Both the position numbers and the translations under genes were made by a program. Under the pieces are notes generated by a model. That model was not told the origin of the DNA and ran no database searches. It was given only the letters and a program-made list of their open reading frames with translations. Positions 29,732 through 60,410 of a stretch of DNA of 64,000 nt are shown here, piece by piece. The stretch lies in the NCBI GenBank assembly GCA_035506535.1, contig DATJPE010000063.1, positions 227,903 to 291,902 of the forward strand, given 5' to 3'. This DNA is from Actinomycetes bacterium. GTDB taxonomy: Bacteria; Actinomycetota; Actinomycetes; DATJPE01. Numbering within the stretch: the first letter of the stretch is position 1; each line of letters begins with the position of its first letter.

Positions 29732-29789
29732 TGGAGAAGGCCCCCGTCGTGCCGACCTCGCATCGACACGACGGGGAGTCCGGGAGCGA

Positions 29790-30941: not shown

Positions 30942-31075
30942 GACGTCTCCTCGTCGCCAGCCACGGTCACCCGTGGTCGTCGCTGTCGGTCCAGTCGCGC
31001 GCAGCCTCACGGCCACGGGCGAATGCCCGCCCTGCGCGAGGTTGCGGCCGGATGAACGCCCGACGTCCATCCGCG

Positions 31076-33123: not shown

Positions 33124-33172
33124 GGTCTTGGTGGTTTCCGTTCGCGAGGTGGCGGCCCGCGGACCGCCGGAG

Positions 33173-33198
33173 CGGGGCCGAGCTAGCGCCCGGCCCCG
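33173..33198 (-). terminator. Weak hairpin (8-bp GC stem) about 40 nt downstream of protein A.
   Basis: CGGGGCCG agctagcgc CGGCCCCG, between the stop at 33236 and the next start at 33123. Confidence 0.3.
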
Positions 33199-33235
33199 CC
33201 CGGTGGCCTCAGCCGCCGAACGTGGTGTTCGGAGT

Positions 33236-35044
33236 TCAGCCGACGGTGAAGACGATGGTTCCGTTGTAGGTGCCGTTGATGGTGTTGGTCGGGGCGTTGA
33301 TGGTCAGGACCCCGTGCGCCTGCAGGGTTCCGTTGCCGCCACCGGTGGTGGTGGCGAAGGTGTGCACGCCCTTGGCCCCGCCGGTTCCCGTGCCCGTTCC
33401 GGGCTGGACACCGGCCAGTGCCGCGTTGTCGGTGTAGCGGACAACAGTTGCGGAGTTGCTCTTCGCGTCGGTGGCCCACCCGGTGAGGCCCACGTTCTGG
33501 CCGTCGATGACGTTGTTCGTCCCGGCCGGGCCGGCCGCCGGGCCGGTCAGGTCGGAGGCGTTCAGCGTCGCCGTCCAGTTCGGGTCACCGGCCAGCGTGC
33601 TGGTGATGGTGAGGTCCGGACCGCTTGCGGCCGGGAACTGGGCCGACGTGGTCAGCAGCGAGCCGTCCGCCGCGAGCTGCATCGCGGGCAGGACGAACGG
33701 GTTCGTCGCGGTGTACGGCGTGGTGATGGTGATGTAACCGGCGCTCACCGCCACCTGGATGCTCTGGGTGTCGGAGCAGGACTGCCCGGCCGGGTAGGCG
33801 GTCGGGTCACCCGGGCAGGTCTGGGCACCGAGGTGGAAGGTCACCGCGGCGCTGGTACCGGTCCCGAAGCTTCCCGTCCCGATGTAGCTCGCCACCACCG
33901 AGTGGTCGCCGACGGGGCTGGTGCCGCCGTTCAGCGCGGTCGTAGTGAAGGAGAAGTTGCCCGAGGAGTCCGGCCCGGTGAGAGTGCCGGCGAGCGGGGT
34001 GGTCGACCCGTCCGCGAACAGCGACAGGGTGCCGGTCAGGGCCGGCGAGCCGGCAGCGGCGCTCACCTGACCGGTGAAGGTCTGGGTCGTGAACGCGGTC
34101 GTGCCGCTCGTGCTGGCGCGTGCCAGCGTGACCGTCGGGATGATCAGTGGCGGACCGACGTGCACCGTCACCGTGCCCTGCGAACCCTGGACCAGCGTGC
34201 CCGCGGTCGGAGTGAACACCGCCTTGTAAGCGTGGTCCGTACCATTGGTCACCGCAGGAGGCGTGGTCGTCGTCGTGTAGGTGCCTGTCCCGGAGGTGAC
34301 CGCCTGCGAGCTGCCGATCGGTGTGGTTCCGTCATAGAACTGCAGCGTTCCGTTGCTCGCCGGGGCGATCGTGGCCGTGAGCGTCACCGTCGGCGGCGTC
34401 CCGGTGAACGGACCGGGCGGGTTCGCGGTCAGCGTGGTCGTCGTGGTGGTGATGGACGGGTAGACGAGCGACCACGTGCCGGCCGAGGTGTTCACCGAGA
34501 TGTCCGCCGCCCAGAACTGCCCCGTGGAGACGCCCGGGCCGGAGTCGTACAGCCGCAGCTGGTAGATCCCTGCGTATCCCGCAGTGGTGTCGCTAGTTGC
34601 ACCGCCGATGAAGCTGGCGATGTTCCCGTCGGTCGCGCCGAGGGTCACCACCGGGAACTGGAAGCCGGTGCTCGACGTGCCGGTCAGCGGCGCCGGGGCG
34701 GTGCTCGACGGGAAGTTGGTCGAGGCCGAGGCGCTGCCGGTGTACCAGGCCGTCGAGTCCGGCTTGGTGTGGTCGGGCGCCGCGAAGACGAGGCTGGCCT
34801 TGGTGGCGCCGGCCTGCTTCGCCGACGTCGCTGCCGCGTAGTCCGCGATGTGGTTGAGGTTGGTCCCGCCGGTGAGGACGTTGCCGGCGGAGTCGTACAG
34901 GACGAGGCTGCCCTGGGAGTTCGGGTCCGGCTCCCACGGCGGGGTGGTGGCCGCGTTCGCGGCACCGGCTCCCGCGGCGAGCGTCGCGCCGATGATCGCG
35001 ACGGCGGCAGCCCCCGCGATCAAGGGCCTGATCGTGCGCTTCAT
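33236..35044 (-). CDS. Secreted protein 'A' (602 aa): signal peptide, domain X, Thr-rich Ig-like middle region, C-terminal WxL-like domain.
   Basis: 'MKRTIRPLIAGAAAVAIIGATLAAGAGAANA'. 'TTPPWEPDPNSQGSLVLYDSAGNVLTGG' (domain X). The C-terminal about 250 aa are paralogous to protein B and end '...NTINGTYNGTIVFTVG', with 'GLTGWATD' in the first WxL-like position. Confidence 0.6.
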   Translation of the reverse strand: MKRTIRPLIAGAAAVAIIGATLAAGAGAANAATTPPWEPDPNSQGSLVLYDSAGNVLTGGTNLNHIADYAAATSAKQAGATKASLVFAAPDHTKPDSTAWYTGSASASTNFPSSTAPAPLTGTSSTGFQFPVVTLGATDGNIASFIGGATSDTTAGYAGIYQLRLYDSGPGVSTGQFWAADISVNTSAGTWSLVYPSITTTTTTLTANPPGPFTGTPPTVTLTATIAPASNGTLQFYDGTTPIGSSQAVTSGTGTYTTTTTPPAVTNGTDHAYKAVFTPTAGTLVQGSQGTVTVHVGPPLIIPTVTLARASTSGTTAFTTQTFTGQVSAAAGSPALTGTLSLFADGSTTPLAGTLTGPDSSGNFSFTTTALNGGTSPVGDHSVVASYIGTGSFGTGTSAAVTFHLGAQTCPGDPTAYPAGQSCSDTQSIQVAVSAGYITITTPYTATNPFVLPAMQLAADGSLLTTSAQFPAASGPDLTITSTLAGDPNWTATLNASDLTGPAAGPAGTNNVIDGQNVGLTGWATDAKSNSATVVRYTDNAALAGVQPGTGTGTGGAKGVHTFATTTGGGNGTLQAHGVLTINAPTNTINGTYNGTIVFTVG

Positions 35045-35077
35045 CAGGTACCTTTCTGGTCGTACCAGTGGGATAGC

Positions 35078-35107
35078 GGCGGGGCGGGCGGACAGGCCCG
35101 CCCCGCC
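35078..35107 (-). terminator. Perfect 12-bp GC hairpin downstream of the second PstS-like gene.
   Basis: GGCGGGGCGGGC ggacag GCCCGCCCCGCC, located 40 nt after the stop at 35147 and 35 nt before the start at 35044. Confidence 0.5.
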
Positions 35108-35146
35108 GTCGTGCTCCTGGCTTGTCTGCTCGGGGGGACTAGTGCG

Positions 35147-36454
35147 TCACGGCCCGAACTGGGTGAAGGCGTACGTCGGGACGACGCCCGCGGCGGAGAT
35201 GAGCGACTGCGCGGAGCTGGTGGCGAAGTACGGCGCCCCGCCGGGCCCGTACGTCGTCCCGCCGATCGTCACGCAGCCCGTGGTGTGGCCCGCACCGGAG
35301 CACGGGTTGTAGAACAGCGTGCGCACCCAGTTGAGCGTGCCGCCGGGCTGGAACACCTTGGTGCTGTTGATGTCAGCGTCCCGGAAGTACAGGTAGAGGC
35401 TGCGGTTGATGTTGAACAGCGAGCCCGACTTCGGGGTCCCGGTCGTCCAGTACTTGACGTTCGGGGTCAACGTGGTGTTGCCGGTGCACACGCTGGAGTA
35501 GCCGACGCAGCTCGGGTCCTTGAAGTAGCCGATCCCCGACCCGCCGTCGTTAGCGGTGCCGTCGCTGAGCTTGCCGAGGTAGAGGTTGAGCCGCCCGCTG
35601 GACATCGGCTCGATGGCGTCCGTCGGAGCGCCGGACGCGTCGATCGCCTCGGGGTCGTTCTCCTCGACGTTGGTGACGCAGCTGCCGGGTGTCGTCACAC
35701 CGATCGCCGACAGGAACGACGTGCGAGTGCCGGAGCCGATCTGCGGCAGCAGCGGCTTGATCGTGTCACTCGAGGTCCCACCGAGGGTGGGGTCGTTCCA
35801 CGTCGTGACCGAGCAGTTGTAGATGGCCTGAAGCTGTGTCGTGGACAGCGCCACCGCGTTGGTCGTCGACGAGCTCAGCATCGCCAGGCCGTCCGTGCCG
35901 ACCGTGATGCTGTCCATCGTGTTGCCGCCCGACCCTCGGGCCGAGGACGCGCGGGAGAAGTCCGCCAGGTGCTTGGTGTCGGCGACCAGGAAGTTGAACC
36001 CCGCACCGGAACCGTTCGGTCGCTGCACCGGCTGGGTACCGGCGCGCAGGACGATCGTCGGGTTCAGCGTGCAGGGGACGTCGCCCGTGTGGGTCGTGTT
36101 CTGGTTGCCGGTCCCCTGGGTGGCTCCGGTGCCGGGTGCGCAGTTGTTCGTCGCGCTGTTGCCCGGCGTGTTGCCCACGCCCTGGGGGCTGTAGGCCAAC
36201 CGCGCGTTCGCGTCGGCGGTGGCGTCGAAGCTCACCAGTTTGTTGGCGTTGCCGAGGGTGTTGTAACCGGTGTCGCCGAGGTGGTCCCCGTCGGCGACGA
36301 AGTCGACGAGATTCTGCAGCGTGTCGGATCCGACCCCGACGACGTCCTTGCTTGACGGTGCGTAGTCGGCCTGTGCGGCCGTGGTCGTCAGAGCGAGCGA
36401 CGCGGTGATCACACCGACCGTCGCCGCGCCGAGCAAGACCTTCTTGCGTCGCAT
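35147..36454 (-). CDS. PstS-family periplasmic phosphate-binding protein paralog (type 2 PBP), secreted.
   Basis: ATG at 36454 ('MRRKKVLLGAATVGVITASLALTTTAAQA'). 'VGVGSDTL', 'LSTTQLQAIYNCSVTTWNDP', 'IGSGTRTSFL' parallel PstS motifs ('LSGQTLAKIFTNKITNWDDP', 'GSGTSF'). The upstream 49 aa of the ORF are rejected. Confidence 0.6.
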   Translation of the reverse strand: MRRKKVLLGAATVGVITASLALTTTAAQADYAPSSKDVVGVGSDTLQNLVDFVADGDHLGDTGYNTLGNANKLVSFDATADANARLAYSPQGVGNTPGNSATNNCAPGTGATQGTGNQNTTHTGDVPCTLNPTIVLRAGTQPVQRPNGSGAGFNFLVADTKHLADFSRASSARGSGGNTMDSITVGTDGLAMLSSSTTNAVALSTTQLQAIYNCSVTTWNDPTLGGTSSDTIKPLLPQIGSGTRTSFLSAIGVTTPGSCVTNVEENDPEAIDASGAPTDAIEPMSSGRLNLYLGKLSDGTANDGGSGIGYFKDPSCVGYSSVCTGNTTLTPNVKYWTTGTPKSGSLFNINRSLYLYFRDADINSTKVFQPGGTLNWVRTLFYNPCSGAGHTTGCVTIGGTTYGPGGAPYFATSSAQSLISAAGVVPTYAFTQFGP

Positions 36455-36629
36455 GTGCAGGTCCCTTCCCGAAGTGGCAGGTGGAGCGCCCGTAGGCTCT
36501 CGGGTCCAGGTCGACGCGCACAGGCGTCCTGCGCTAACGCGAGATGAACCTCGGGCTGCCATCGGCTCGCATTCGGGCACAAGGGATCGCCGGTCCAACA
36601 ACGGGTGAACGAGGCCTCACGTGCGGGCG

Positions 36630-37598
36630 TCACATGAGGTTCGGCATCAGCTGGACGGCCACCGAGGTGACCCCCCAGAGGCAGGCCAGCAGGGCGGGGA
36701 CACCCACCACCCAGGTCTGCCAGGTGCCCCAGTAGACCCACGAGACGACGTACGTCGATGCCACGGCGACCAGGAGGAACAGCCACAGCACCAGCTGCAC
36801 GAGGACGCTGGTGTCGATGCTCATCGCCTGTTCTGCTGCCGGGACCGCGGCCGGACGACCGGGTGGTGCCGGGACGGACGTGCCGGCCAGGTCGGCGTCG
36901 ACGTAGACGACGCCGGTCGGGGCCCACACCGAGCGCCAACTCGCACCCTCGGCGCTGACCAGGGTCAACCGCCCATGCCCCGGCTGCACCGGCTGGGGAA
37001 AGCGGTCCCCGGCCCGCCTGATGTCGATGACGCGGTAGGTGAAGCGGCCCTGCCCCGTGACGACCGCGATCGCGTCCCCGCGGGCGAGGGTGCCGACGTT
37101 CTCGAACGGTCCCCCGAAGGTGCTCTCCCGGCCGTAGACGACACTGACGCCGGCCTGGCCCGGCAGCGGGGTGTCGCGACGGTGCCCGGGGCCGGCGATC
37201 AGGTCGCCGGACGTGGTGCCCTCGACGACGACCAGGTCGTGCAGCTCCAGGGCGGGGATGCTCAACAGGGCCACCGGCGCACCCGGGCGGATCAGTCCGC
37301 CCAGCGGCGCGGTCTCCTCGGCCAGCTGCTCGCGCAGTGTGTCGTAGCCAACGTGCTGGTCACGCCACTCCTGGAAGGAGCTCAGGACGACCCCGTAGAT
37401 CACCGCCCAGGCTGCGACCACCGCGGTGCACACGATCACGCCGGTGACGACCCGGCGGCGTGGAGTCGGTCGCGGACGGGCGGGCAGCCGCAGCCTCTTC
37501 GGCAGGCGCACGTGGACGCGCCGCCGCCGCCTGGCCTCGGGGACGACGTCGGGGGGATCCTCGACGACGGTCACCGGCGACCGAGCCCGCTGTTCCAC
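36630..37598 (-). CDS. Sortase-fold protein with catalytic His and Cys substituted (probable pseudo-sortase). N-terminal TM plus two C-terminal TM helices.
   Basis: Aligns residue-for-residue with the bona fide SrtE at 20208-21032: 'LPGQAGVSVVYGRESTFGGPFENVGTLARGDAIAVVT' vs 'LPGEVGNFAVAGHRATNGQPLANIPRVTVGSYVYVRT' (His to Arg), and 'GRLTLVSAEGASWRS' vs 'ARLTITTCNPRWAS' (Cys to Ala). Starts within or at the end of the upstream 909-aa gene. Confidence 0.6.
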   Translation of the reverse strand: MEQRARSPVTVVEDPPDVVPEARRRRRVHVRLPKRLRLPARPRPTPRRRVVTGVIVCTAVVAAWAVIYGVVLSSFQEWRDQHVGYDTLREQLAEETAPLGGLIRPGAPVALLSIPALELHDLVVVEGTTSGDLIAGPGHRRDTPLPGQAGVSVVYGRESTFGGPFENVGTLARGDAIAVVTGQGRFTYRVIDIRRAGDRFPQPVQPGHGRLTLVSAEGASWRSVWAPTGVVYVDADLAGTSVPAPPGRPAAVPAAEQAMSIDTSVLVQLVLWLFLLVAVASTYVVSWVYWGTWQTWVVGVPALLACLWGVTSVAVQLMPNLM

Positions 37599-40300
37599 AC
37601 CGCCGCGACCAGCGCAAGCACCACGAGGACCAGCAGCGCCGGGAACGCCAGCGCGGCCGGCCCCGGCCGCACGCCGACCGTCTTGCCGGTGAGGACCACC
37701 GCGATCTTCGACGGACTCGGCGACGACGACGGCGACGGCTTCGGTCTGGCGGAGGAGGAGCTCGTCGAGGGCGCGGCTGCGGTTGAAGGGCTCCCCGCGG
37801 CCGACGGCTCACCGCCGGTTGTGCCGGTCCCCGCCTCGCTCGTGGTGGAGGGCGTGGGACTGACGGATGGCGTCGGCGTCGGCGTCGGGGCCGGGTCGCC
37901 GTTGACGTAGGGCACCACGCCCTGCTGCTGCTCGACGGCCTGTGCGGCCGTCCGGGTGTAGGCCGCGAGACCGGCCAGATGGTTGGCCGCGGTCATCGGC
38001 AGGTAGCCGACGGGCAGCTGCCCTTGGTCGAGACCCGGCTGCTGACCTACCCCCGCCGCGAAGCGCAGTAAGTCGGCGTAGTGCGCGGCGTCGGCGGCGG
38101 GGAGCCCCTGCGTCGGGACGTCGAGGGACAGCACGAGGATGCCCGGGTACGCCTGCTCGCCGGCCGCGCGCGTGCGCAGCGCGGCGTACGGGACCGGCCA
38201 CGTCCCGAGCTGCTTGTCTGGCTCGAGCATCGCCGCGGCGGCCCGCAGCCCGTCGTCGCTTGGTCCGACGAACGTGCGGCCGGTCGCGTCGGTGAGCGCC
38301 GTCCCGCTCCCGCTGCTGACGTGGGTCTGCAGCTGGGCGACGTTGAGCTGGTAGCGCTCCGCGTCCGCCAGAGACACCAGCCCGAGGATGAAGCGGTACC
38401 CCGGGTTCTCCCGGCCGAGCGCGACCAGCTTCTGGTTCTGCTGGCCGGCGTTCTGGCAGTTGATCTGGGAGTTGGCGATGTCGAACTGCATGTTCAGGCT
38501 GATCGTGGCCGGGTTCGACACCGGTGCGGCGACGAGCGGCAGCCAGGGGGTCGGGCTGAGCGCGAGGCACGGGTTTCCAGCCTGCAGACCCTTGGGGATG
38601 AACGTGTCCCGTAGCGGCCACGTCGAGACCGGGAGCTTGATCCCCTTGTACGCGGGGTTGACGACCATCCCCCATGGGTCGGGGCGCCCGTCGAGCCACG
38701 CACGCGCCTCCGGGTCGGCGTTGATGTAGCTGGTCAGCGCGGTCAGCACGTCGGAGTCGCTCGACATGATCGCCAGCGTCGCGGCCGGCTCGAGGTTGTA
38801 GCCGAGGCTCACGACTCCGGGGTTGAGCGCGCGGAACTCTGGGTCGTGGCCGATGTCGATCGGGTTCCCCGACAGCGCCTTGTCCTCGCTCTTCATCGTC
38901 GGGTTCGAGGGATAGGACTCGGTGAGCAGCTTGGCGAGCAGCCGCGGAGTCAGCTTGAGGTCTGGATGGACCCCGCCGCTCTGGTCGTCCACCGAATAGG
39001 CGATCGCGAACCCGCTGACGGCGACTGGCGCCTGCACCACCGGCTGGGGGAAAGGTTCGTCCGGCGGCCCGGCCTGGACGGCTGCTTCGACACTGCCCGC
39101 GCGCAGCAGGTTCTTCGCCTGCGGCTCGCTGGTCTGCACGTGCTGGAACTTGAACAGCTTGGGGTCGAGACAGAACCTCGGCGCCCACTGCTCCGTGGCC
39201 TGCGCGAGCGCCTCGGAGCCGTACAGGTAGATCGGCTGTCCGTTGCTGACCAGGTTGCAGACCCCCGCGGACGGGGCGAAGGTCAGCGGGACCGAGATCC
39301 GGTTGCGCCAGTTGGACGCGCTCCACCACAGCTCACCGCTGACCGACAGGTCCTCGCTCTCCCAGGTCCCGTAGTTGTAGTCGCCCGGTGCGTACTTGCC
39401 GGTCGCCGCGCACTCCGACTCGATGGTCGGGACCAGCGAGGGGTCGGGCGCCTCCGAGGCCGGTAGCTGCGCACCCGCGGCGTCACAGCTGATGCCCATG
39501 ATCGGGATGATCACCAGCGAGCAGGTGACCGTGTCCGAGCAGCCCATGGACGCGTTGGAGTCCACCGTCTGCACCACGAACTTGATCGAGCCCGCCCCGG
39601 TCTTGTCGCTCGCGCCGTACGTCGTGTTCCCCGGCTGCAGCGACTCGTCCGCGTTGGCCGCCTCGGGGGCCATGCCGGCGCAGCCGAGGGAGCCGCCCGG
39701 GTAGACGGTGCCGTTGGCGGCCACGAAGGGGATCCAGTGCTGCACGCCGGCGTCCGAGCCGGCGCACGCCTTCGGCAGCGGGCTGGGCTCGCCGACCTTC
39801 TCGGCGCGGTCGGCCGTCGTGGCGTAGCGATCCATCCGGTACGGGGGGTAGTTGAACACGTAGTCGGACTGGAAGCGTTCGGCGGGCGTCTGGGTCCAGC
39901 AGGTCTGCGGTGACAGCCGCTTCGAGGCCGGCACCGACGTGCTGTCGATGCCGCGGCACTCCATGACGACGACGGGGTACTCCTGCTGCGCGGCGAGCGC
40001 GGAGTTCTGGTCGCCCACCAGCCCGCCGGTCGGGTGCGCGCCCGACCAGCTCACGTTGATCGTCTGCCGGTCGCGAAGCTGCTCGGTGTCGTCGACGTGA
40101 ACGGTGACGCTACGGCTGTCGACCGGCACGTCCTGGCCCGCCACGAGGTTCACCCGGTCGATGGTCTTGGTCTTGGCGAAGCCGGTGTCGGCGGAACCGG
40201 CCGCCCGGGCCGTACCGGCCGACGCCGGCAACGCCAGCCCCGCGGCCGCGAGGAGCGCGACCAGCGCGAGGCCGAGCCTTGACGGCAGCTTCCGCGTCAT
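37571..40300 (-). CDS. Large secreted protein (909 aa): signal peptide, Cys-rich N-terminal region, central PstS-like PBP-fold region, Pro/Thr/Ser linker, C-terminal TM anchor.
   Basis: The ATG at 40300 overlaps the pstS stop (ATGA). 'MTRKLPSRLGLALVALLAAAGLALPASA'. 'YLYGSEALAQATEQW', 'LTPRLLAKLLTESYP', 'VAVSGFAIAY' echo PstS 'IQGSGSSWSANAVNQW', 'LSGQTLAKIFTNKI', 'AIGYDEYSY'. C-terminus '...PTPTPTPSVSPTPST...ALLVLVVLALVAAVWNSGLGRR'. The N-terminal 460 aa of the 1369-aa ORF-track entry are out-of-frame overlap with pstS and are rejected. Confidence 0.6.
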   Translation of the reverse strand: MTRKLPSRLGLALVALLAAAGLALPASAGTARAAGSADTGFAKTKTIDRVNLVAGQDVPVDSRSVTVHVDDTEQLRDRQTINVSWSGAHPTGGLVGDQNSALAAQQEYPVVVMECRGIDSTSVPASKRLSPQTCWTQTPAERFQSDYVFNYPPYRMDRYATTADRAEKVGEPSPLPKACAGSDAGVQHWIPFVAANGTVYPGGSLGCAGMAPEAANADESLQPGNTTYGASDKTGAGSIKFVVQTVDSNASMGCSDTVTCSLVIIPIMGISCDAAGAQLPASEAPDPSLVPTIESECAATGKYAPGDYNYGTWESEDLSVSGELWWSASNWRNRISVPLTFAPSAGVCNLVSNGQPIYLYGSEALAQATEQWAPRFCLDPKLFKFQHVQTSEPQAKNLLRAGSVEAAVQAGPPDEPFPQPVVQAPVAVSGFAIAYSVDDQSGGVHPDLKLTPRLLAKLLTESYPSNPTMKSEDKALSGNPIDIGHDPEFRALNPGVVSLGYNLEPAATLAIMSSDSDVLTALTSYINADPEARAWLDGRPDPWGMVVNPAYKGIKLPVSTWPLRDTFIPKGLQAGNPCLALSPTPWLPLVAAPVSNPATISLNMQFDIANSQINCQNAGQQNQKLVALGRENPGYRFILGLVSLADAERYQLNVAQLQTHVSSGSGTALTDATGRTFVGPSDDGLRAAAAMLEPDKQLGTWPVPYAALRTRAAGEQAYPGILVLSLDVPTQGLPAADAAHYADLLRFAAGVGQQPGLDQGQLPVGYLPMTAANHLAGLAAYTRTAAQAVEQQQGVVPYVNGDPAPTPTPTPSVSPTPSTTSEAGTGTTGGEPSAAGSPSTAAAPSTSSSSARPKPSPSSSPSPSKIAVVLTGKTVGVRPGPAALAFPALLVLVVLALVAAVWNSGLGRR

Positions 40301-42006
40301 GACTGCCTCCTGCGTCGACGGGAGAGGTAGACCGCGAGGATCGGCGGAAGGACGATCAGCGCGAGGATCTCCAGTGCCGCGACCGATCCGAGCACCGACG
40401 TGAGGTTCTGCTGGCGGTAGCCGGCGAGCTGGGTGGGAACGCCGGTCACTGGGTCCGCCGCGGCCGCCACCTGGGTGTCGACCACCTGACCGGTGTCCGG
40501 GTTCACCGACGGGCTGGCGCCCGTCGAGCCGGTCACCGCCGTCGTCCCGCTCTGGCCGGTGCCCGTGGACGACGACGCGGCCGTCTTCGCCCCGCCAGAC
40601 GTCGCAGTGCTGGACCCCTTCGTGGCCGTCGACCCGCTCGACGTGGTGGAGCCCTGTCCCGGGGAGGAGGTCTGCGGGGCCTTGCCGTTCCTGGGGTTGC
40701 CGTTGGCGATGCCCGCGTTGGCGTCGCAGGGCCCGGCGCCCGACTTGTCGCACGCGGGTGGCTTGGGGGCGATCTCGGCCAGGTAGTTGCGGTTCGGCTG
40801 GCCGGCGATGAACGTCGGGTTGTGGCAGGTCGACACGTTGCGTTGCGTGAGGTCCACGCCCGGGTCGGCCGTCTTGAGCTTGGCCGTCTGCGCGAAAGAG
40901 GCCTGGACGAGGTTGATCGGCAAGGGCGAGTAGCCGATCGGGCCCATTTCCGCCTGGCCCTGGCATACGGAGTAGTAGAGGAAGTCGGCGAGCGTCTGCC
41001 GTTTCGCGGTCGTCATGCGCGGGTCGGTCGGTGACGTTGGAATGATCATGTACGAGTACGACGAGATGGCGTACGTCCTGGGGTCGGGGTTCGTGTAGAC
41101 CTGGTCGAGGTTCTGCAGCAGGTAGTCCTTCGACGACTTGTCCATGTTGATCTGCGCCTTGGTGAGTGCGACCGCGACGTTGTACTGCGTGGGCGCCGTG
41201 AAGTAGCCCGCGGCGTTCTCGACCTTGGCCACTGGGAAGTTCTTCGCGAGGGCATAGGAGTACTCGTCGTAGCCGATCGCCCCGTTGGCGGCGCCCGAGG
41301 AGATGAAGTTCATGACCCCGTCGGAGCCGTTCTGGGCGATCTGCCCGCCCTTGCGCGGGAAGTACTCGGTCAGACCGGACGTGCCGAGGAACGGCCGCCA
41401 GATCGAGGGGTACTGCTTGTCCAGGTAGCGGGTGAACTGCGCGGTCGAGCCGGAGCCCTCGGAGTGGACGACCGGGATGATGGGCAGGGACGGCAGCGCA
41501 TGGCCGTTGTTGTCCGCCGTGATCTCGGGGTCGTCCCAGTTGGTGATCTTGTTCGTGAAGATCTTGGCCAGCGTCTGGCCAGACAGCCGGAGGTTGCGCA
41601 CCAGCTGACCGGCCACCTTGATCTGGTACGGGAACGCCGTCCCGCCCGCCACGATCGGCAGGTAGGCGTACGGCCGGCACTGCGGCGTGCAGGGCGTGTC
41701 CGCCTCGCCGGTCACCGGGTCCTTGCCCTGGTAGCCGATGTCACTGACCGCGAAGTCCGTCGTGCGGTAGGCGAAGTCCTTGCGCCCGATCGCCGAGCCG
41801 CTCGCGGTGAAGACGACCTGCAGGCCGTTGGCCTGGACGTCGGCGATCCACTGGTTGACGGCGTTGGCGCTCCAGGACGAGCCCGACCCTTGGATGAGGG
41901 CGTGGCTCGCCGCCGCGTCCGCCGGAGCGGACCCGAAGAGCAGGCTCACCAGCACGCTCACCACCGCTGCCGCGACGGTGAGCAGGGGGTATCGGCGTCG
42001 GTTCAC
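40297..42006 (-). CDS. pstS: Phosphate ABC transporter substrate-binding protein PstS, atypical: non-lipoprotein signal peptide, about 200-aa Gly/Ser/Thr-rich C-terminal extension and a C-terminal TM anchor.
   Basis: 'ALIQGSGSSWSANAVNQW', 'SGSTAQF', 'GAIGYDEYSYAL' are PstS motifs. No Cys in the signal peptide ('MNRRRYPLLTVAAAVVSVLVSLLFGSAPADA'). C-terminus '...LEILALIVLPPILAVYLSRRRRRQS'. The GTG start overlaps the pstA stop (GTGA). Confidence 0.8.
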   Translation of the reverse strand: MNRRRYPLLTVAAAVVSVLVSLLFGSAPADAAASHALIQGSGSSWSANAVNQWIADVQANGLQVVFTASGSAIGRKDFAYRTTDFAVSDIGYQGKDPVTGEADTPCTPQCRPYAYLPIVAGGTAFPYQIKVAGQLVRNLRLSGQTLAKIFTNKITNWDDPEITADNNGHALPSLPIIPVVHSEGSGSTAQFTRYLDKQYPSIWRPFLGTSGLTEYFPRKGGQIAQNGSDGVMNFISSGAANGAIGYDEYSYALAKNFPVAKVENAAGYFTAPTQYNVAVALTKAQINMDKSSKDYLLQNLDQVYTNPDPRTYAISSYSYMIIPTSPTDPRMTTAKRQTLADFLYYSVCQGQAEMGPIGYSPLPINLVQASFAQTAKLKTADPGVDLTQRNVSTCHNPTFIAGQPNRNYLAEIAPKPPACDKSGAGPCDANAGIANGNPRNGKAPQTSSPGQGSTTSSGSTATKGSSTATSGGAKTAASSSTGTGQSGTTAVTGSTGASPSVNPDTGQVVDTQVAAAADPVTGVPTQLAGYRQQNLTSVLGSVAALEILALIVLPPILAVYLSRRRRRQS

Positions 42007-43091
42007 TTGGCACGGTCCCTGGCGAGGAAACGGGTGATGGCGAACAGGACGAGGACGAGCAGCAGCAGGAGCGCCGCCGCGCCGTAGCCCCTCGCGATGT
42101 ACAGCGGCTCACCGCTGCGCACCGCGGAGAAGATGAACAGCGGGAGGGAGTTCATCGGCTCGCTGAAGGGGTTGGCGTTGAAGAAGGTCGACGCGCCCGA
42201 GACGATGAGCAGCGGGGCCGTCTCCCCGGCGATGCGGGCGATGCCGAGGATCAGCGACGTCGCCATCCCGGCCTTGGCGGTCGGGAGGACGACGCGTCGT
42301 ACGGTGTCCCACTGCGACGCGCCCAGCGCCAGGCCGGCCTCGCGCAAGCCTCCCGGCACCACGCGCAGCACCACCTCGGCGGAGCGGGCGATGATCGGCA
42401 GCATGGTGACGGTGAGGGCGACCGACACCGCGAAGCCCGTCCGGGGAAAGCCGAACCCGATCACGAGGGTGACGTAGACGAACAGGCCGGCGAGAACGTC
42501 GGGCAGCGCCGTCATCGCCTCGACCACGGTCCGGACCGTGCGCGAGAGCCGGCCCCCCACCTCGGTCATGAACACGGCGGTGCCGATCCCCAGCGGCAGC
42601 GCGAACAGGGTCGCGATCCCGACCTGGATCGCGGTGCCCACGATGGCGTGCAGCACCCCGCCCTGCGTCAACGGTGAGGTCGGCCGCACGCCCGACATGT
42701 CGTCACGGAAGAAGTTGAGGTGGTGCAGGGCCGGCCAGCCCTTGACGAAGACGAACACCACCGTGCTGGTCAGCGCCAGACCAACGGTGACGGCCGCGCC
42801 GGTGACCACAGCGGCCGCCAGTCGGTCCCGCACGGTCGGCCACGGGTTGGAGATCCGGGACACGAGGGTGTACATGAGCAGGAAGACCAGGTACCAGCTC
42901 ACGACGAACCCGACGACGCCGCTGAACGGCAGCACCCGCTCGAACAGGAGCCAGACGAGGGAACCCGAGCCGACGATGCTGCCGGCGACCGACGCCCGGT
43001 CGTCGAGCGTGCGGGCACGCAGCGGTCGTGGGATCTCGACGGGGGCCTCCGTGTCGACCTCGGCGGCCTCCTGGTCCACCATCGCCGTCAT
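42003..43091 (-). CDS. pstA: Phosphate ABC transporter permease PstA.
   Basis: 'ILGIARIAGETAPLLIVSGAS' matches the PstA EAA-loop region ('AIARIAGETAPLLFTA' in E. coli). ATG 'MTAMVDQEAAEV' at 43091. The 5' part of the 631-aa ORF is rejected. Confidence 0.85.
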   Translation of the reverse strand: MTAMVDQEAAEVDTEAPVEIPRPLRARTLDDRASVAGSIVGSGSLVWLLFERVLPFSGVVGFVVSWYLVFLLMYTLVSRISNPWPTVRDRLAAAVVTGAAVTVGLALTSTVVFVFVKGWPALHHLNFFRDDMSGVRPTSPLTQGGVLHAIVGTAIQVGIATLFALPLGIGTAVFMTEVGGRLSRTVRTVVEAMTALPDVLAGLFVYVTLVIGFGFPRTGFAVSVALTVTMLPIIARSAEVVLRVVPGGLREAGLALGASQWDTVRRVVLPTAKAGMATSLILGIARIAGETAPLLIVSGASTFFNANPFSEPMNSLPLFIFSAVRSGEPLYIARGYGAAALLLLLVLVLFAITRFLARDRAK

Positions 43092-43102
43092 CTCGGATCT
43101 CC

Positions 43103-44119
43103 TCAGATCTCCGTCGCCGCGCCGCTGCGGCTTCGGTTGACGAAGATGGCAGCGACCGTGTTCACGCCCAGGGTGATGACGAACAGCACGAAGCCGGCCG
43201 TGAGGAGTGCGGAGAGCTGGGCGCTCGTGGCCTCCCCGAAGCGACCGGCGATGAGCGCCGAGGTCGTCTCCGTGCCGACCGTGAGAATCTTGATCTTGAT
43301 GTCGAACGCCGGCGAGATGATGAGCAGGACGGCGATGGTCTCCCCGAGCGCGCGCCCGAGCGCCAGCATGGTGCCGCCGATCACCCCTCCACGTCCGAAG
43401 GGCAGCACGACCGCTCGGATCACGCCCCACCGCGTCGCGCCGAGCGCGTACGCCGCCTCGCGCTCGCCGACCGGCGCCTGCGCGAAGACGCCTCGCATGA
43501 CGGCGCACGCGAGCGGGATCACCATCATCGACACCGCCAGGCCCGCGATGAACGCGGAGGCGGTGTACTGCGACTGCGCCCACGAGGCCGCCCGCGGGTC
43601 GGTGTCCACGGCGAAGACCGGGATCCAGCCGAGGTACTCCGACAGCCACCGCGCGACCGTGATGGCGTGCGGTTGCAGGAGGAAGAAGCCCCAGAGCCCG
43701 AAGATGATGCTCGGGACGGCAGCCATCAGGTCGATGAGCGAGGTCAGGGTGGCCTGCAGCCGCGGCGGCGCGTACTCGCTGATGTACAGCGCCGTCAGCA
43801 GCGCCAACGGGAAGCCGACGGCGAGGGCGACCAGGGCCACCTCGACGGTCCCCACGAGCACCGCGGAGATGCCGACGATGTCCCGCTCGGGCTGCCACTG
43901 GCTCTGGGTGAAGAAGTGGATGCCGTACCGGCGAAGCGTGGGGATCGCCTGGTAGCCGAGGAACAGCCCGATGGCGCCGGTGAGGACCAGCACGAAGGAG
44001 CCGATCGCCCGTACGGTCCCCCGGAAGACGCTGTCCTTCGCCGGCCGCGCCGGGTCGATGTCCCGGGGGACGTCCGGGCCCTCGGCCGACGGCCAGAGGT
44101 GCTCAGCCGAAGCGACCAT
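43103..44119 (-). CDS. pstC: Phosphate ABC transporter permease PstC.
   Basis: '[19 protein letters not shown]', '[13 protein letters not shown]', '[16 protein letters not shown]' correspond to E. coli PstC 'ELLAAIPSIVYGMWGLF', 'AAVMRDVFEQTP', '[11 protein letters not shown]'. Start overlaps the pstB stop. Confidence 0.85.
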
Positions 44120-44933
44120 GGACGTAATCGCTGGTTCGGGGGTCGCGGGGGTTGCCGAAGATCTGCTCGGTGGAGCCGGCCTCGACGATCCCGCCCGGCG
44201 TGCCCTGCTCGGCGAGGAAGAACGCGCACTGCTGGGAGACGCGCGCGGCCTGTTGCATGTTGTGGGTGACGATGACGATCGTCACGTCGCGCCGCAGCTC
44301 GGCGATGGTCTCCTCGATCCGGCGGGTCGACGTCGGGTCCAGGGCGGAGCACGGCTCGTCCATGAGCAGCACGTCCGGCTCGACCGCGAGCGAGCGGGCG
44401 ATGCACAGCCGTTGCTGCTGCCCTCCGGAGAGCGCACCGCCGGCGGAACCCAGCCGGTCCTTCGCCTCGGTCCACAACCCCGCCCGGCTCAGGCAGCGCT
44501 CGACGAGGTCGTCCTTGTCGTGCCTGGCGATCTTGGTTCCGGTCAGCTTGAGACCCGCCAGGACGTTCTCGGCGATCGACATGGTCGGGAACGGGTTCGG
44601 CTTCTGGAAGACCATCCCGATGCGCTTGCGGGTCTCGGTGATACGACGTCCGGCGTCATAGATGTCGACCCCGTCGAGCAGCACCTGACCGGCCAGCTGC
44701 GCCGAGGGCACCAGCTCGTGCATCCGGTTGAGGGTGCGCAGGAACGTGGACTTCCCGCACCCCGAGGGTCCGATGAGGGCGGTGACCGTCCCCGGGGGCA
44801 TGGACAGGGACACCCGTTCCAGCACCTTGTGGCTGCCGAACCACGCCGAGACCGCCACCGCGTCGAGGTGGGCGCCCCGGATCTGGCCGGTCACGTCGGG
44901 CAGGCGGATGGTCGTGTCGCTGACCGAGCTCAT
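44103..44933 (-). CDS. pstB: Phosphate import ATP-binding protein PstB.
   Basis: '[17 protein letters not shown]', '[19 protein letters not shown]', '[13 protein letters not shown]', '[15 protein letters not shown]' and C-terminal 'DYVHGRFG' are all PstB hallmarks. Confidence 0.9.
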
Positions 44934-44967
44934 CCGCCCACCTCGCGCTCGTCAGGCCAGGGCGACC

Positions 44968-45370
44968 TCACGCCGCGCCCGTCCCGCCGAGCACGCCGAC
45001 GCGTCCGCGACGGCTCGTACGGGGATGGGCGTGCACGTCCGGTGCGGCGGCGTCGGGCACCGCGGCGAGGAATCGCGAGAGGCTGTACTCGCACTCGCGT
45101 CGCCGCTGATGGCCGCGGGCCGCCACCGCCACCGGGCGCTCGTCCAGGTCGAGTCGCCATACCCACAGCCCCGTCACGTGGTTGAGCGCCAGCAGGGCCT
45201 GCGTACGCGCGATGCCCGCGATGACCGCCACCGCGTCCTCCACGCAGCGCAGCAGGTCGGGGTAGACCTGGGCGCTTCGCCCGAGCTCTCTGTTGTTGGC
45301 ACCGGCCAGTCGCCACGACACCCAGGAACCGTCCTCAGCAGTCAGACCTCGTAGGGCGGAGCTTCGGTCC
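44968..45370 (-). CDS. Hypothetical small protein immediately upstream of pstB, possibly the first gene of the operon.
   Basis: Within the 355-aa minus ORF, only the C-terminal about 130 aa have protein-like composition ('SWVSWRLAGANNRELGRSAQVYPDLLRCVEDAVAVIAGIARTQALLALNHVTGLWVWRLDLDERPV'). The start codon is not identified. Not PhoU. Confidence 0.3.
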
Positions 45371-45634
45371 GGCCAGGCGGGAGAGGGGGATCCCTCCCGC
45401 AGCGTCCCCGTGACGAACAGGAACCGAGGCCTGGACACCGAACCTCCTCGTGCCGGCCGCGAGGACTCCACCGCCCCTGGCGGGCGGCGGCCCCCGTACG
45501 GCCGAACCGCGGCTGATCGTGCTGAGGCTGCGCGACGGCCCGTCCACCGCGACCTGAACGCCGAACGTTGCCTCGGTGAACGGGCGGTGCCCACGTCCCA
45601 GCGGAGCGCGGCCCGCCCGTGGGAGGGTGGCGAC

Positions 45635-46564
45635 GTGAACGTCATCGAGGTGCGCGGCGGGCGCAAGACGTACCGGCGCTGGCGCAAGCCGCCGGAACGC
45701 GCCTTGGACGGCCTCGACCTCACCGTCGAGGAGGGTGGGGTGCACGGCTTCCTCGGCCCGAACGGTTCGGGCAAGACGACCACGATCCGGGCCCTGCTGG
45801 GCCTGGTCCGGGCCGACGCCGGCGAGTTCCGGCTGCTCGGGCAGCAGGTCCCCCAGACGTTGCCCGCCGTCGTCGCCGAGGTGGGGGCGCTCGTCGAGAC
45901 GCCGCTGTTCTTCCCGAGCTTCTCGGGCCGGCTCAACCTGCAGCTGCTCGCGCAGGTCGCCGGCGTGCCCAGAGAGCGCGTGGAGGAGTGCCTCGAGACC
46001 GTCGACCTGAGCGAGCGCGCGGAGGACCGGTTCAAGGGCTACTCCCTGGGGATGAAGCAGCGCCTCGGGATCGCCGCGGCACTGCTCAAGCGCCCGCGGC
46101 TGCTCGTCCTCGACGAACCGTCGAACGGCCTCGACCCCGCCGGCATCCGCGACGTCCGGGAGCTGCTGCGCCGCCTGGGCGCCGACGGTCGGACCACCGT
46201 CTTCTTGTCCTCCCACCTGCTGGGCGAGGTCCAGCAGGTGTGCGACCACGTCACGATCCTCGCCCGGGGACGATGCGTGACCACGGGCCGCACGAGCGAG
46301 GTGCTGCGGGCGAACACCACCGACGACGTCCGGCTCTGCGTGCCCGACCCGATGGGCGCCCACGACGTGCTCACCGCCGCCGGCTACCGCCTGAGCAGCC
46401 TCGGTGACGCGTGGCGGGTCCACGACGTCCACGACCGCTCGGCGCTGACGCGCACGCTCGCCGACCGAGGCCACTACCTCACCGAGCTGTCCCCGATCGC
46501 GGCCGACCTCGAGGACGTCTTCCTGCAGCTCACCGGGGACGCCGAGCCGGAGGTCCAGCCGTGA
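45635..46564 (+). CDS. ABC transporter ATP-binding protein (ABC-2/DrrA-like).
   Basis: The GTG at 45635 follows 'GGGAGGGTGG'. Walker A 'GPNGSGKTTTIR', signature 'YSLGMKQRLGIAAAL', Walker B 'LLVLDEPSNGLD'. The upstream 114 aa of the ORF are rejected. Confidence 0.8.
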   Translation: MNVIEVRGGRKTYRRWRKPPERALDGLDLTVEEGGVHGFLGPNGSGKTTTIRALLGLVRADAGEFRLLGQQVPQTLPAVVAEVGALVETPLFFPSFSGRLNLQLLAQVAGVPRERVEECLETVDLSERAEDRFKGYSLGMKQRLGIAAALLKRPRLLVLDEPSNGLDPAGIRDVRELLRRLGADGRTTVFLSSHLLGEVQQVCDHVTILARGRCVTTGRTSEVLRANTTDDVRLCVPDPMGAHDVLTAAGYRLSSLGDAWRVHDVHDRSALTRTLADRGHYLTELSPIAADLEDVFLQLTGDAEPEVQP

Positions 46565-47382
46565 GCACGGCCGTGGACGTACCGCGCGCGACGTACGGCG
46601 GGCTGCTCGGCTCGGAGATCCGCCGCCTGCTGCATCGCCGCGTGGTCCGCTGGCTCGCGGTGTTCGCGGTGGCCCAATACCTGCTGGTGAACGTGATCGT
46701 GTGGCTCAACCACGACAAGGCGGGGAGCGGCCACCCCGCCTACCGGCTGGGGGACGCCGGCGGCGGGGCCGTCGGCGTCGGCGTGGGGGTGGCCATCCTC
46801 ATGTTCGTGGTCGGGACGACGTACGCCGGCGCGGAGTGGTCGCAGCGGACCATCGTGGCCCTGCTGTTCTGGGAGCCGCGCCGCGGACGGGTCATCTCGG
46901 CGAAGGTCCTGGTCGCGGCAGCCGCCGCCGTGACGGTCACCGTGGTGAGTCAGGTGGTCTGGCTGGCGACGGCGTACGTCCTGGCGGCGACCAAGGGCGT
47001 CACCACGCTGCCGTCGGGCTTCTGGGCCAACCTGCTGGACCGTCAGCTCAGGGTCCTGATCTTCACCGTGCTCGTGACCTGGCTCGGTTTCGGCATCGCC
47101 AACCTGGTCCGCAACTCGGCGGCGTCCCTCGGCGTGGGGTTCGTCTACTTCGTCATCGTCGAGTCCGTCGTCCAGGCGTTCTGGACCTGGGCGACCCCGT
47201 ACCTGCTCACCCACAACGCGATCGCGCTGTTGTCCCCGGGCGGCTGGGACATCCCGGCGCGCGATCCCAGCCGTTCCCCGGTCCACCTGAGCTCGCTGCA
47301 CGGCGGCCTGGTGTGGGGGACCGCCTCACTGGCGATCCTCGCGGTCGGAACCGTCGTCTTCAGCCGCAGCGACGCCGCGTAG
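46561..47382 (+). CDS. ABC-2 type transporter permease (6 TM).
   Basis: The GTG overlaps the ATPase stop (GTGA). Hydrophobic profile typical of the ABC-2 family. Confidence 0.7.
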   Translation: MSTAVDVPRATYGGLLGSEIRRLLHRRVVRWLAVFAVAQYLLVNVIVWLNHDKAGSGHPAYRLGDAGGGAVGVGVGVAILMFVVGTTYAGAEWSQRTIVALLFWEPRRGRVISAKVLVAAAAAVTVTVVSQVVWLATAYVLAATKGVTTLPSGFWANLLDRQLRVLIFTVLVTWLGFGIANLVRNSAASLGVGFVYFVIVESVVQAFWTWATPYLLTHNAIALLSPGGWDIPARDPSRSPVHLSSLHGGLVWGTASLAILAVGTVVFSRSDAA

Positions 47383-47385
47383 GCC

Positions 47386-47517
47386 TCACCGCAGGTCGAG
47401 CGTCTCGTCGCGCGTGGCCTCGATCCAGAGATCCTCCTCGGCGCGGCTGCTCTGGTACTTGCGCCACGCCCCGAAGGCGACCCCCGCGAGGGCCACCAGC
47501 ACGAGCAGCTTCTTCAC
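47386..47517 (-). CDS. DLW-39 family small membrane protein (43 aa).
   Basis: Translation VKKLLVLVALAGVAFGAWRKYQSSRAEEDLWIEATRDETLDLR: one TM and the conserved DLW motif. It is not in the ORF track because it is shorter than 60 aa. Confidence 0.65.
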   Translation of the reverse strand: MKKLLVLVALAGVAFGAWRKYQSSRAEEDLWIEATRDETLDLR

Positions 47518-47617
47518 GTCGCACCCTCTCCCGGCACTCCTTCGCGTGCCCTCGGCCACGGTAGCCGAGGCCGTCGGCCCCCGACGCGGGGGGCACGCTG
47601 GCGAGTGATCCGGTGAG

Positions 47618-47691
47618 TGGGCCTAGGAGGACTTGAACCTCCGACCTCTTCCTTATCAGGGAAGCGCTCTAACCGTCTGAGCTATAGGCCC
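47618..47691 (-). tRNA. ileT: tRNA-Ile (anticodon GAU).
   Basis: Reverse complement is GGGCCTATAGCTCAGACGGTTAGAGCGCTTCCCTGATAAGGAAGAGGTCGGAGGTTCAAGTCCTCCTAGGCCCA. Lies after the DUF3566/gyrA block, as in mycobacteria. Confidence 0.9.
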
Positions 47692-47762
47692 GAGTGCCGC
47701 GGCGGCTCAGCGCTCGAGGCCCCGGCAGCGTACCGGAGCCCCGCAGAGCGGCCCAACTTCGT

Positions 47763-48377
47763 TCAGGGCTCCTCGACGAGGGTGACGTCCAGCCCGCCGA
47801 CCAGCCCCGCCGCGAGGTTGTAGAGGAACGCCGCGAGCGTCGCCAGCGCGGTGATCAGCACGACCTGCACCACCGCCAGCACCAGGGCGACCCCCATGAC
47901 CCGGCGGAAGGCCAGCGCGCTCTGGACGGTGAAGTCGGTCTGGTCGTTCGCCACGTCGGCCACGACCTTGTTGATGGAGTCGAACACCCCTCCGGAGTCG
48001 AGCAGGGACCACAGCAGCCCGACGGCGACGACGAAGACGATGCCGAGGGCGAGGGAGAGCAGGAAGCCGAGCTTCATCACCGACCAGGGGTCCACCTGCC
48101 GGATCTGCAGGCGGGCCTTGCGCGGGCCCCGGACCGGGTGCGCGCCTGGCGCCGGCGCCATCACGGTCCCCGGTGCAGGGCTCGGCTCGAGCGGTGCGAC
48201 CGGGGTCGGCACCGGGACCGACGCGACGGCGGACGGGATCGTGACCACGCCCGGAGCGGCGGGCTCGTCGTCGTGGGCGCCGTTGGAGGCCGCCGAGGGT
48301 ATCGGGACGGTGGGCGCCGACATGGTCCGCGCCTCGGGGCGAGCAGCCCCCCGGCCGCGGGTCGGGTCGGTCGTCAC
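47763..48377 (-). CDS. DUF3566-family transmembrane protein (Rv0007-like), conserved downstream of gyrA.
   Basis: Start overlaps the gyrA stop. Pro/Ala-rich N-terminus, then '[26 protein letters not shown]' and a second TM. Confidence 0.7.
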
Positions 48378-51010: not shown

Positions 51011-51052
51011 GGTGCGGGGTTCCTGTCGCGGCTCGGCGGCTCGGGAAGCGGC

Positions 51053-53041: not shown

Positions 53042-53304
53042 CTCGGCGATTGCGGCGCCCGCGGCACCGGTCGGGGTCCACCGCCTCGGCAGGCGGCGAG
53101 GGATGGATCAGGCCGCCCGGGAAAGCCGGCGGCGGCCTGTCTGACTGCCGCTCATCCTACCCTGTCGAGGCCCCCTCAGCGGCCTCCTGTGGACCCCTGA
53201 GGCCCGTCGTGGCGCGTCGGCAGCGTGTCGATGATTCCCCCTACCGACCCACTGCCTCCGCGGGGCGCAGCGGCGGCGCACGCGGCGCACACCCCATACT
53301 CGTG

Positions 53305-60407: not shown

Positions 60408-60410
60408 GCC

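Follow-up and report, generated by a model that had tools for sequence, protein, structure and literature searches.

A conserved actinobacterial gene cluster linking a Pst-type importer to predicted tethered receptors and a sortase homologue without catalytic residues

What does it signify when the genes of a Pst-type phosphate transporter stand in the order pstB-pstC-pstA-pstS (B-C-A-S), with the ATPase gene first and the receptor gene last? The question is raised by a stretch of 64,000 nucleotides with a G+C content of 70% (hereafter the window) from a metagenome-assembled 'Actinomycetes bacterium' (contig DATJPE010000063.1). A first-pass annotation of this sequence had described a shuffled four-gene Pst operon. 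We find instead that the four genes form the front part of a conserved seven-gene operon, which lies entirely on the minus strand, runs from a DUF1508 gene to the gene of a sortase homologue, and is always linked to a surface-protein module (Table 1). We propose, at a probability of roughly 0.6, that the locus encodes a Pho-regulated importer of the ATP-binding cassette (ABC) type for phosphate, or for a phosphate-like anion, with membrane-tethered receptors made in stoichiometric amounts. The main interest of the locus lies in its combination of an apparently dead sortase with a tethered multi-receptor design, more than in gene order alone. Literature searches on the gene order, on sortases in combination with PstS, on inactive sortases and on DUF1508 returned no description of such a cluster.

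The B-C-A-S order is part of a conserved operon

The open reading frames (ORFs) and junction sequences confirm the B-C-A-S order and its coordinates to the base, including a 17-nt overlap of pstB and pstC, an 11-nt gap between pstC and pstA that contains GAGGAG, and a GTGA start/stop overlap between pstA and the gene of the PstS-family receptor. The order is thereby borne out as real; it is non-canonical, and its genes are tightly coupled. The end of the operon, previously placed at the receptor gene (40297), had to be moved: an ATGA overlap with GGAGG 5 nt upstream joins the receptor gene to a gene encoding a 909-amino-acid (aa) protein, and a further GTGA overlap joins the latter to the gene of the sortase homologue, which ends at 36630. 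On the other side, 34 nt separate the stop codon of the DUF1508 gene from the start of pstB. The suggestion that the receptor gene relies on read-through from upstream stands in part: the codon overlap agrees with it, and no evidence of an independent pstS promoter came from a promoter and terminator consensus scan of 28-46 kb, which returned no promoter-like sites, found terminator-like sites no more often than chance would give, and is uninformative at this G+C content.

The permeases are well separated by their NCBIfam scores. PstC reaches 238.8 bits on its own model (TIGR02138, cut-off 196.45) and 123.4 on the PstA model, and PstA reaches 205.4 bits on its own (TIGR00974, cut-off 193.45) and 118.2 on the PstC model, so that the two have not been interchanged, an error against which the first-pass annotation had cautioned. 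PstB matches PF00005 and, best by far, TIGR00972, with 336.3 bits slightly under the cut-off of 343.2; its translation contains the Walker motif, the signature LSGGQQQR and the Walker B sequence LLMDEP.

Conservation was assessed through the 909-aa protein, which a scan of one genome per species found encoded in 152 species. Eighty loci were fetched, the window proteins were mapped onto all of them, and the counts given below refer to 81 non-redundant loci from Actinomycetes and Acidimicrobiia that hold the 909-aa gene. The genes pstC, pstA, the receptor gene and the 909-aa gene occur in this order in 62 of the 81, most of the others being truncated contigs; the sortase homologue comes next after the 909-aa gene in 58, and pstB directly precedes pstC in 53. 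In 7 loci pstB lies at the far end of the surface module, and a pstB-first order is thus not obligatory. Three permuted arrangements combine the pst core with the surface module, all genes being on one strand in each of them: the window type (B-C-A-S-909-sortase, then the surface module), a surface-first type found mostly in Acidimicrobiia (surface module, then B-C-A-S-909-sortase) and a pstB-last type (C-A-S-909-sortase, then the surface module, then pstB). Overlaps of 4 nt predominate at the junctions of the receptor and 909-aa genes (51/69), of pstA and the receptor gene (36/65) and of the 909-aa and sortase-homologue genes (43/75), although these counts are approximate, start codons having been picked heuristically. 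Dozens of assemblies made independently show the same gene order, which speaks against an artefact of assembly; given that order, arrangements and overlaps all recur across loci, B-C-A-S is also no accident of one genome but belongs to a larger conserved unit that can comprise as many as 13 genes. Carriers include Frankiales-like, Jatrophihabitans, Nocardioidaceae, Micromonosporaceae, Streptosporangiaceae and Acidimicrobiia genomes, most of them sampled from peat, soil and lake water; OY969930.1 is an example of a complete genome with the cluster. Several genomes hold two paralogous copies of the whole cluster (L011 and L040, L030 and L042, L021 and L066, and L073), often of different arrangement types, and in L073 the second pstC-pstA begins 2 kb past the pstB of the first cluster.

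A simpler account would be that of an ordinary high-affinity Pst system in which gene order has drifted neutrally and the downstream genes are unrelated neighbours. It can point to the PstC and PstA equivalog scores and the near miss of PstB, to the pstB-first order that already exists in mycobacteria, and to four loci in which the cluster lies beside NUDIX-CHAD-ppk, the place occupied by pstSCAB in Streptomyces (PMC7866108). We nevertheless consider it quite unlikely, as 4-nt overlaps connect the downstream genes, which are found together in 58 of the 62 complete loci across two classes of Actinomycetota, as the receptor is systematically unlike canonical PstS in length, anchor and pocket, and as some genomes have the whole cluster in two copies. 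Adjacency to ppk, CHAD and NUDIX genes was rejected as a general context of the cluster, being confined to the four loci mentioned.

The window system shares with PstSCAB of E. coli and Streptomyces the same four protein families, intact ATPase motifs and permeases at the PstC and PstA equivalog level. It differs in its order (B-C-A-S instead of S-C-A-B), in a receptor predicted to be anchored at its C-terminus and not periplasmic or a lipoprotein, in the lack of the pocket Arg and the sub-cut-off score of that receptor, and in three extra conserved operon genes. In Streptomyces pstSCAB, moreover, pstS opens the operon and gives the more abundant transcript (PMC7866108), whereas the receptor gene of the window is last and coupled instead of first and over-expressed. 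The pst region of M. tuberculosis (pstB-pstS1-pstC1-pstA2) is likewise actinobacterial, opens with pstB and encodes several PstS-fold proteins, and both the receptor and the 909-aa protein count M. tuberculosis PstS-1 and PstS-3 among their best PDB matches. Mycobacterial PstS receptors are, however, lipoproteins encoded before the permease genes, and to our knowledge the mycobacterial pst region includes neither a sortase homologue nor a 909-aa protein.

Predicted tethered receptors and a sortase homologue without catalytic residues

The receptor encoded behind pstA matches PF12849 (E-value 1.5e-34) and solved PstS structures in the PDB. Its Sec signal peptide has no lipobox; the PstS domain is followed by a Cys-containing extension and a stalk of about 100 residues rich in Ser, Thr and Gly, and a transmembrane helix with an RRRRR tail forms the C-terminus. 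A hydrophobic helix and basic tail close 64 of 67 receptors of the family, and just 12 of the 67 have any Cys within their first 45 residues. Because helix and basic tail follow the stalk and a lipobox is missing, we predict that the receptor is not a lipoprotein and is tethered C-terminally on a long stalk. Tethered or fused binding proteins are known, among them C-terminally anchored ones in archaea and the fused domains of OpuA and GlnPQ; as in these, the window receptor would be held at the membrane beside its transporter and no excess of free receptor would be needed. Those systems differ in serving other substrate classes and in having no sortase homologue and no second giant receptor.

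The 909-aa protein has more than 1,300 database homologues and matches no Pfam or NCBIfam family at threshold. Behind an N-terminal Cys-rich beta domain of some 300 residues lies a PstS-fold domain, from which a Ser/Thr/Pro stalk leads to a transmembrane helix and basic tail at the C-terminus. An AlphaFold model built from 21 homologues (mean predicted local distance difference test score, pLDDT, 66; confident at residues 330-570 and 630-800) found its best PDB matches exclusively among phosphate-binding proteins, led by M. tuberculosis PstS-1 (1pc3; E-value 1e-10, template-modelling (TM) score on the target 0.73) and followed by more than 30 further PstS or DING entries. The protein is thus predicted to hold a second PstS fold. 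Mapping of its pocket onto PstS was attempted by profile-profile alignment to the receptor, which covered 56 columns at 19% probability and left the residues unmapped. The family has a nearly invariant SSDSD (window residues 513-517) and 11 invariant cysteines; by eye SSDSD can be matched to the phosphate loop RADGSG of PstS, in which case the pocket would be acidic, a match that the profile alignment did not confirm.

The last gene of the operon encodes a membrane protein with sortase similarity (PF04203, E-value 5e-11), whose best NCBIfam match is the class E sortase model NF033747 at 65 bits against a cut-off of 160. In its model (pLDDT 79) a beta barrel stands between a single N-terminal helix and a C-terminal pair of helices, and all top matches in a fold search are sortases (4d70, target TM score 0.78). 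In HMMER alignments to solved sortases, however, the catalytic His of the 'AGHR' motif aligns with an Arg of the window protein. Among 72 distinct family members this position holds Arg in 56, Lys in 15 and His in 1, and the Cys position of the TLxTC motif holds Ser in 37, Ala in 26, Thr in 5 and Gly in 4; in 71 of the 72 the ectodomain contains no Cys at all. A Cys at the catalytic position is likewise absent from all 120 of the closest database relatives, which their sources label 'sortase A'. The protein is, as judged from these residues, catalytically dead, and with the catalytic His and Cys replaced it should not be filed as a sortase enzyme. It resembles class E sortases (SrtE) in best sequence match, in beta-barrel fold and in membrane anchoring, and is unlike them in having Arg or Lys for the catalytic His and Ser, Ala, Thr or Gly for the Cys, in its extra pair of transmembrane helices at the C-terminus, in the terminal sequence LLPN[LV]x, and in having no LPXTG or LAXTG substrates in its cluster, where neither sorting signal was found among the anchored proteins. 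The LLPN[LV]x terminus that follows the two helices is strongly conserved (Pro in 72/72, Asn in 71/72) and also closes 117 of the 120 database relatives.

Since fold and membrane location have been kept and the chemistry has been lost, we infer that the sortase homologue probably serves the anchored proteins as a partner in docking or assembly, without catalysis. The motif LA[AG]YR before the membrane anchor was considered as a family-wide 'pseudo-sorting signal' and rejected, as only about 22 of 67 receptors have it.

Beyond the sortase homologue a gap of 175 nt leads to the gene of a third PstS-family protein of 435 aa, after which five surface-protein genes extend down to a tRNA-Ala at 28 kb. 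The 435-aa protein, which is secreted and has no anchor, matches PF12849 (8e-10) and TIGR02136 (51 bits), resembles the TIGR02136 or V. cholerae 1twy type, and retains a GSGTR motif in the PDB alignment; in most loci its gene either follows the sortase homologue or opens the cluster. Three of the surface-module products (602, 383 and 302 aa) share, by eye, an N-terminal domain that starts with PPWEPD and matches no family, and the module was also seen in L001, L003 and L004. The WxLIP_PGBD match of the 380-aa protein is below threshold (E-value 0.006; 17 bits against a cut-off of 27.3). With the WxL clusters of Firmicutes (PMC10599100, PMC9772566) the locus has in common secreted and C-terminally anchored surface proteins and this weak WxLIP match; it differs in phylum, in that Pfam found no WxL domain in the cluster, and in its link to an ABC importer, of which the papers found give no description.

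The company of these genes raises the possibility that the PstS-fold, sortase-homologue and Ig-like proteins form a surface adhesion or envelope-structural complex, with the importer merely co-regulated. The Big_3_5 Ig-like domains and weak match to a WxL-interacting protein in the neighbouring module, the large extra N-terminal domain of the 909-aa protein, and the roles that PstS has at the surface of M. tuberculosis and P. aeruginosa would fit such a complex. We regard it as very improbable, since translational coupling binds the receptors to the permease genes in most loci, and since pstB stays in the cluster even in the 7 loci in which it has been relocated past the surface module, which argues for one functional unit built around the importer.

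Returning to the proposed tethered-receptor importer, the start/stop overlaps may couple translation of the permease, both receptors and the sortase homologue. Because of this coupling the receptors would be produced roughly one-for-one with the transporter, which fits tethered receptors acting in cis. The sortase homologue would dock or assemble the anchored proteins non-catalytically, and the neighbouring module, through its Ig-like proteins and the third protein of the PstS family, probably continues capture into the wall. Taken furthest, the dead sortase could serve as a scaffold that holds the anchored PstS-fold proteins next to the importer and, together with the third PstS-family protein and the Ig-like wall proteins, form a Pho-switched, envelope-spanning relay for phosphate harvesting; this extension is speculative and we advance it with considerable doubt.

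Upstream region, binding pocket and ligand

The first gene of the operon had been annotated as a small ORF of unknown function starting at 45370. That the ORF is real is supported by its homologues and by codon-position G+C phasing, which indicates coding from 44968 to about 45350 in the frame originally given. Its start has to be revised: the public gene call (156 aa, start at GTG 45438) and an N-terminal motif shared with the homologues, M..PRF.(L/F)V, both reach that far, so GTG 45438 is the most likely start, with GTG 45321 as an alternative. Homologues occur in about 25 loci, 5' of pstB or between pstB and pstC (L010, L025, L039), and some loci have two copies. PF07411 (DUF1508) is matched by 12 of 18 family members (best E-value 7e-7), the window copy having no match at E≤1, and the family profile matches the UPF0339/YegP structures 3bid (E-value 0.004, second half) and 6q2z (0.022, first half). 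We take these matches to identify the product as a predicted cytoplasmic tandem DUF1508/YegP-like protein. The ORF had been said to sit where PhoU would be expected. It has no PhoU similarity, and PhoU is not expected 5' of pstB: in E. coli its gene follows pstB, and in Streptomyces phoU adjoins phoRP (PMC7866108). A literature search found no paper linking the DUF1508 family to phosphate.

The same annotation had recommended searching for PHO boxes upstream of the ORF, and this search proved positive. Three direct-repeat units with GTTCA, which we take to be the core of PhoP repeat units, lie at 45581-45549 on the minus strand (GTTCACCGAGG, CAACGTTCGGC and GTTCAGGTCGC), within a 196-nt divergent intergenic region and 111-143 nt upstream of GTG 45438. 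The signal surfaced only on comparing orthologous upstream regions of the DUF1508 gene, in which GTTCA pentamers recur at a distance of exactly 22 nt, some 100-145 nt ahead of the start codon; units 1 and 3 have this spacing. In 1.47 Mb of related loci GTTCA-N17-GTTCA occurs 17 times when both strands are counted, and 10 of these sites are located 28-150 nt upstream of the DUF1508 gene or pstB, against about 0.05 expected by chance for that target space. A matrix made from the cluster sites finds the window box as the only strong match in 64 kb (34 bits; next best 17). It also picks out sites outside its training set: four further loci have one ahead of the DUF1508 gene, two have one ahead of the 435-aa PstS-family gene, and L030 and L040 have complete three-unit repeats 72-75 nt upstream of ppk. 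PhoP boxes in Streptomyces consist of 11-nt direct-repeat units and are carried by both pstS and ppk (PMC7866108), and the window promoter is like that of PstSCAB in having a PhoP-type direct-repeat box. Together these sites provide good sequence-level evidence for Pho control of the cluster. The promoter region with its three-unit repeat would drive the seven-gene operon and render it starvation-induced. The same intergenic region is shared with a divergent pair of genes encoding an ABC ATPase and an ABC-2-type permease (45635-47382, plus strand).

The receptor pocket was surveyed by aligning 67 family members with E. coli PstS, in a register that PDB alignments show as well. The E. coli residues Thr10, Phe11, Ser38, Asp56, Arg135, Asp137, Ser139, Gly140 and Thr141 correspond to Ser, Trp, Ser, Asp, His, Glu, Ser, Gly and Ser in the window receptor, which has equivalents of Ser38, Asp56, Ser139 and Gly140 and departs from the canonical phosphate pocket elsewhere. 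Throughout the family the Asp137 position is Glu, the Phe11 position is Trp, and Ser139 and Gly140 are retained; the Asp56 position is Asp in 45 receptors and Ser, Ala or Glu in the others. The variants at these positions co-vary with gene arrangement: the window type has S-D-H-S, the surface-first type D-S-Q-A and the pstB-last type A-D-H-V, and in the D-S-Q-A set the acidic residue has shifted from position 56 to position 38. As the variants change in sets and an acidic residue has been relocated, the pocket looks like a maintained binding site and not a decayed one. SphX-type phosphate-binding proteins that lack both Asp and Arg still bind phosphate with micromolar affinity (PMC13614923), for which reason the missing Arg weakens the case for phosphate as the ligand but does not overturn it. 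S-type proteins such as SphX of Synechocystis (PMC13614923), which has an Asp-Arg-Thr triad, do without the canonical Asp and/or Arg and bind phosphate at lower affinity, and both the D-S-Q-A pocket subtype and the 435-aa protein resemble this class; the window receptor differs in that it keeps the Asp56 equivalent and replaces only the Arg, by His.

The substrate could alternatively be something other than free orthophosphate, such as an organophosphate, a polyphosphate fragment, a metal-phosphate complex, arsenate or another oxyanion. The consistent Glu and Trp substitutions and the missing Arg would suit such a ligand, as would a receptor that scores below the PstS cut-off and is named by NCBI, for the exact protein, 'substrate-binding domain-containing protein' and not PstS; three different PstS-fold proteins in one cluster would further suggest divided ligand roles. 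We hold this to be unlikely given that the permeases score as PstC and PstA equivalogs, that a Pho-type box is common to this promoter and that of ppk, and that known proteins without the Asp/Arg pair bind phosphate, most hydrogen-bonding positions being kept here.

Several observations weigh against the Pho-regulated, tethered-receptor importer that we favour. The first concerns the receptor: the early claim that all four Pst components are unambiguous holds for PstC and PstA, which exceed their cut-offs, but not for the PstS-family protein, which at 187.5 bits on TIGR00975 stays below the equivalog level of 205 and has His at the Arg135 position. Across 68 sequences this position is His in 46, Gln in 20 and Asp in 2, and never Arg; with this residue missing throughout and the score under the cut-off, phosphate is not proven as the ligand. 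As regards regulation, a strict search for two adjacent 11-nt PHO units gave scattered matches and none at the window promoter, the middle repeat unit of the window box is degenerate, and the surface-first arrangement shows no strong box directly before pstB; the repeat motif was moreover defined on these phylogenetically related loci, so that only the ppk sites and a few extra ones are independent of it. The docking role has no family-wide motif to go with it, LA[AG]YR being present in about a third of receptors. Lastly, nearly all carrier loci come from metagenome-assembled genomes, the one isolate being Dactylosporangium sp. NPDC048998.

Genomic surroundings and significance

The window also spans the chromosomal origin block (47617-61430), which includes a DciA-like gene and in which oriC is probably located between dnaA and yidC, at about 59.0-60.4 kb. 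An Rfam search of the window returned nothing but tRNAs. From tRNA-Ile to tRNA-Ala (28031-47691), about 19.5 kb are taken up by the ABC-2 exporter pair and the whole 17-kb cluster; no integrase and no shift in composition were seen between these two tRNA genes, which we take to be adjacent in the conserved origin-proximal block of M. tuberculosis. A tRNA-flanked island was rejected as a general feature, since 60 other loci show few scattered tRNAs and no flanking tRNA-Ile/tRNA-Ala pair, and the genomic position of the cluster is for this reason lineage specific. Just downstream of the cluster, beyond tRNA-Ala, are three genes (23913-27815), of which that for a PIG-V-like mannosyltransferase might have a part in glycosylating the stalks rich in Ser and Thr, and at 11690-19211 there is an ordinary-looking actinobacterial block for cell-wall signalling.

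Table 1. Positions of the features discussed, in window coordinates, with strand and basis of assignment
Feature	Position	Strand	Basis
PHO-box-like element	45549-45581	-	three 11-nt direct-repeat units
Tandem DUF1508/YegP-like gene, 156 aa, predicted cytoplasmic	44968-45438	-	G+C phasing at third codon positions, public gene call, homologues
pstB, ABC ATPase, 276 aa	44103-44933	-	TIGR00972, PF00005
pstC, permease, 338 aa	43103-44119	-	TIGR02138
pstA, permease, 362 aa	42003-43091	-	TIGR00974
Atypical PstS-family receptor, 569 aa	40297-42006	-	PF12849, TIGR00975 below cut-off, PDB PstS matches
909-aa secreted anchored protein, predicted PstS-fold domain	37571-40300	-	AlphaFold model, fold search
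Sortase-fold membrane protein ('pseudo-sortase'), 314 aa	36630-37574	-	PF04203, model fold
Third PstS-family protein, 435 aa, secreted, no anchor	35147-36454	-	PF12849, TIGR02136
Surface-protein module, five genes	28340-35044	-	Pfam, gene calls, co-occurrence with pst core
Ig-like (Big_3_5) protein, 602 aa	33236-35044	-	Pfam
Anchored protein, 380 aa	31981-33123	-	weak WxLIP_PGBD match
Anchored protein, 302 aa	31076-31984	-	gene call
Big_3_5 protein, 383 aa	29790-30941	-	Pfam
Protein of 463 aa	28340-29731	-	C-terminal region resembles that of the 602-aa protein
yidC	60411-61430	+	
dnaA	57460-59028	-	
dnaN	55852-56994	-	
recF	54692-55813	-	
gyrB	51053-53041	-	
gyrA	48374-51010	-	
DUF3566	47763-48377	-	
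tRNA-Ile	47617-47691	-	
Secreted GH26-like protein	26184-27815	+	
Undecaprenyl-diphosphatase BacA/UppP, roughly 95-residue N-terminal extension in longest ORF	25107-26270	-	
PIG-V-like mannosyltransferase	23913-25022	+	
PknB-type kinase with PASTA domains	17430-19211		
PBP-A-type transpeptidase	15899-17347		
PP2C phosphatase	13192-14418		
tRNA-Leu	11690-11775		

Peat, soil and lake water are often short of phosphate, and if the proposed reading is true, widespread and largely uncultured Actinomycetota take up phosphate with a differently built machine. The recognition of pst systems in metagenomes would then change, because the receptor escapes the PstS name at NCBI. More than 1,300 'hypothetical proteins' that make up a 900-aa family would gain a testable function, and sortase homologues that are labelled 'sortase A' yet unable to be transpeptidases would be given a first context. 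With Dactylosporangium sp. NPDC048998 (L086) at least one cultured strain has the cluster, which makes experiments possible. Should the envelope-spanning relay also prove true, it would represent an architecture for nutrient capture not described before in monoderm bacteria, and a catalytically dead sortase would for the first time have a role assigned to it.

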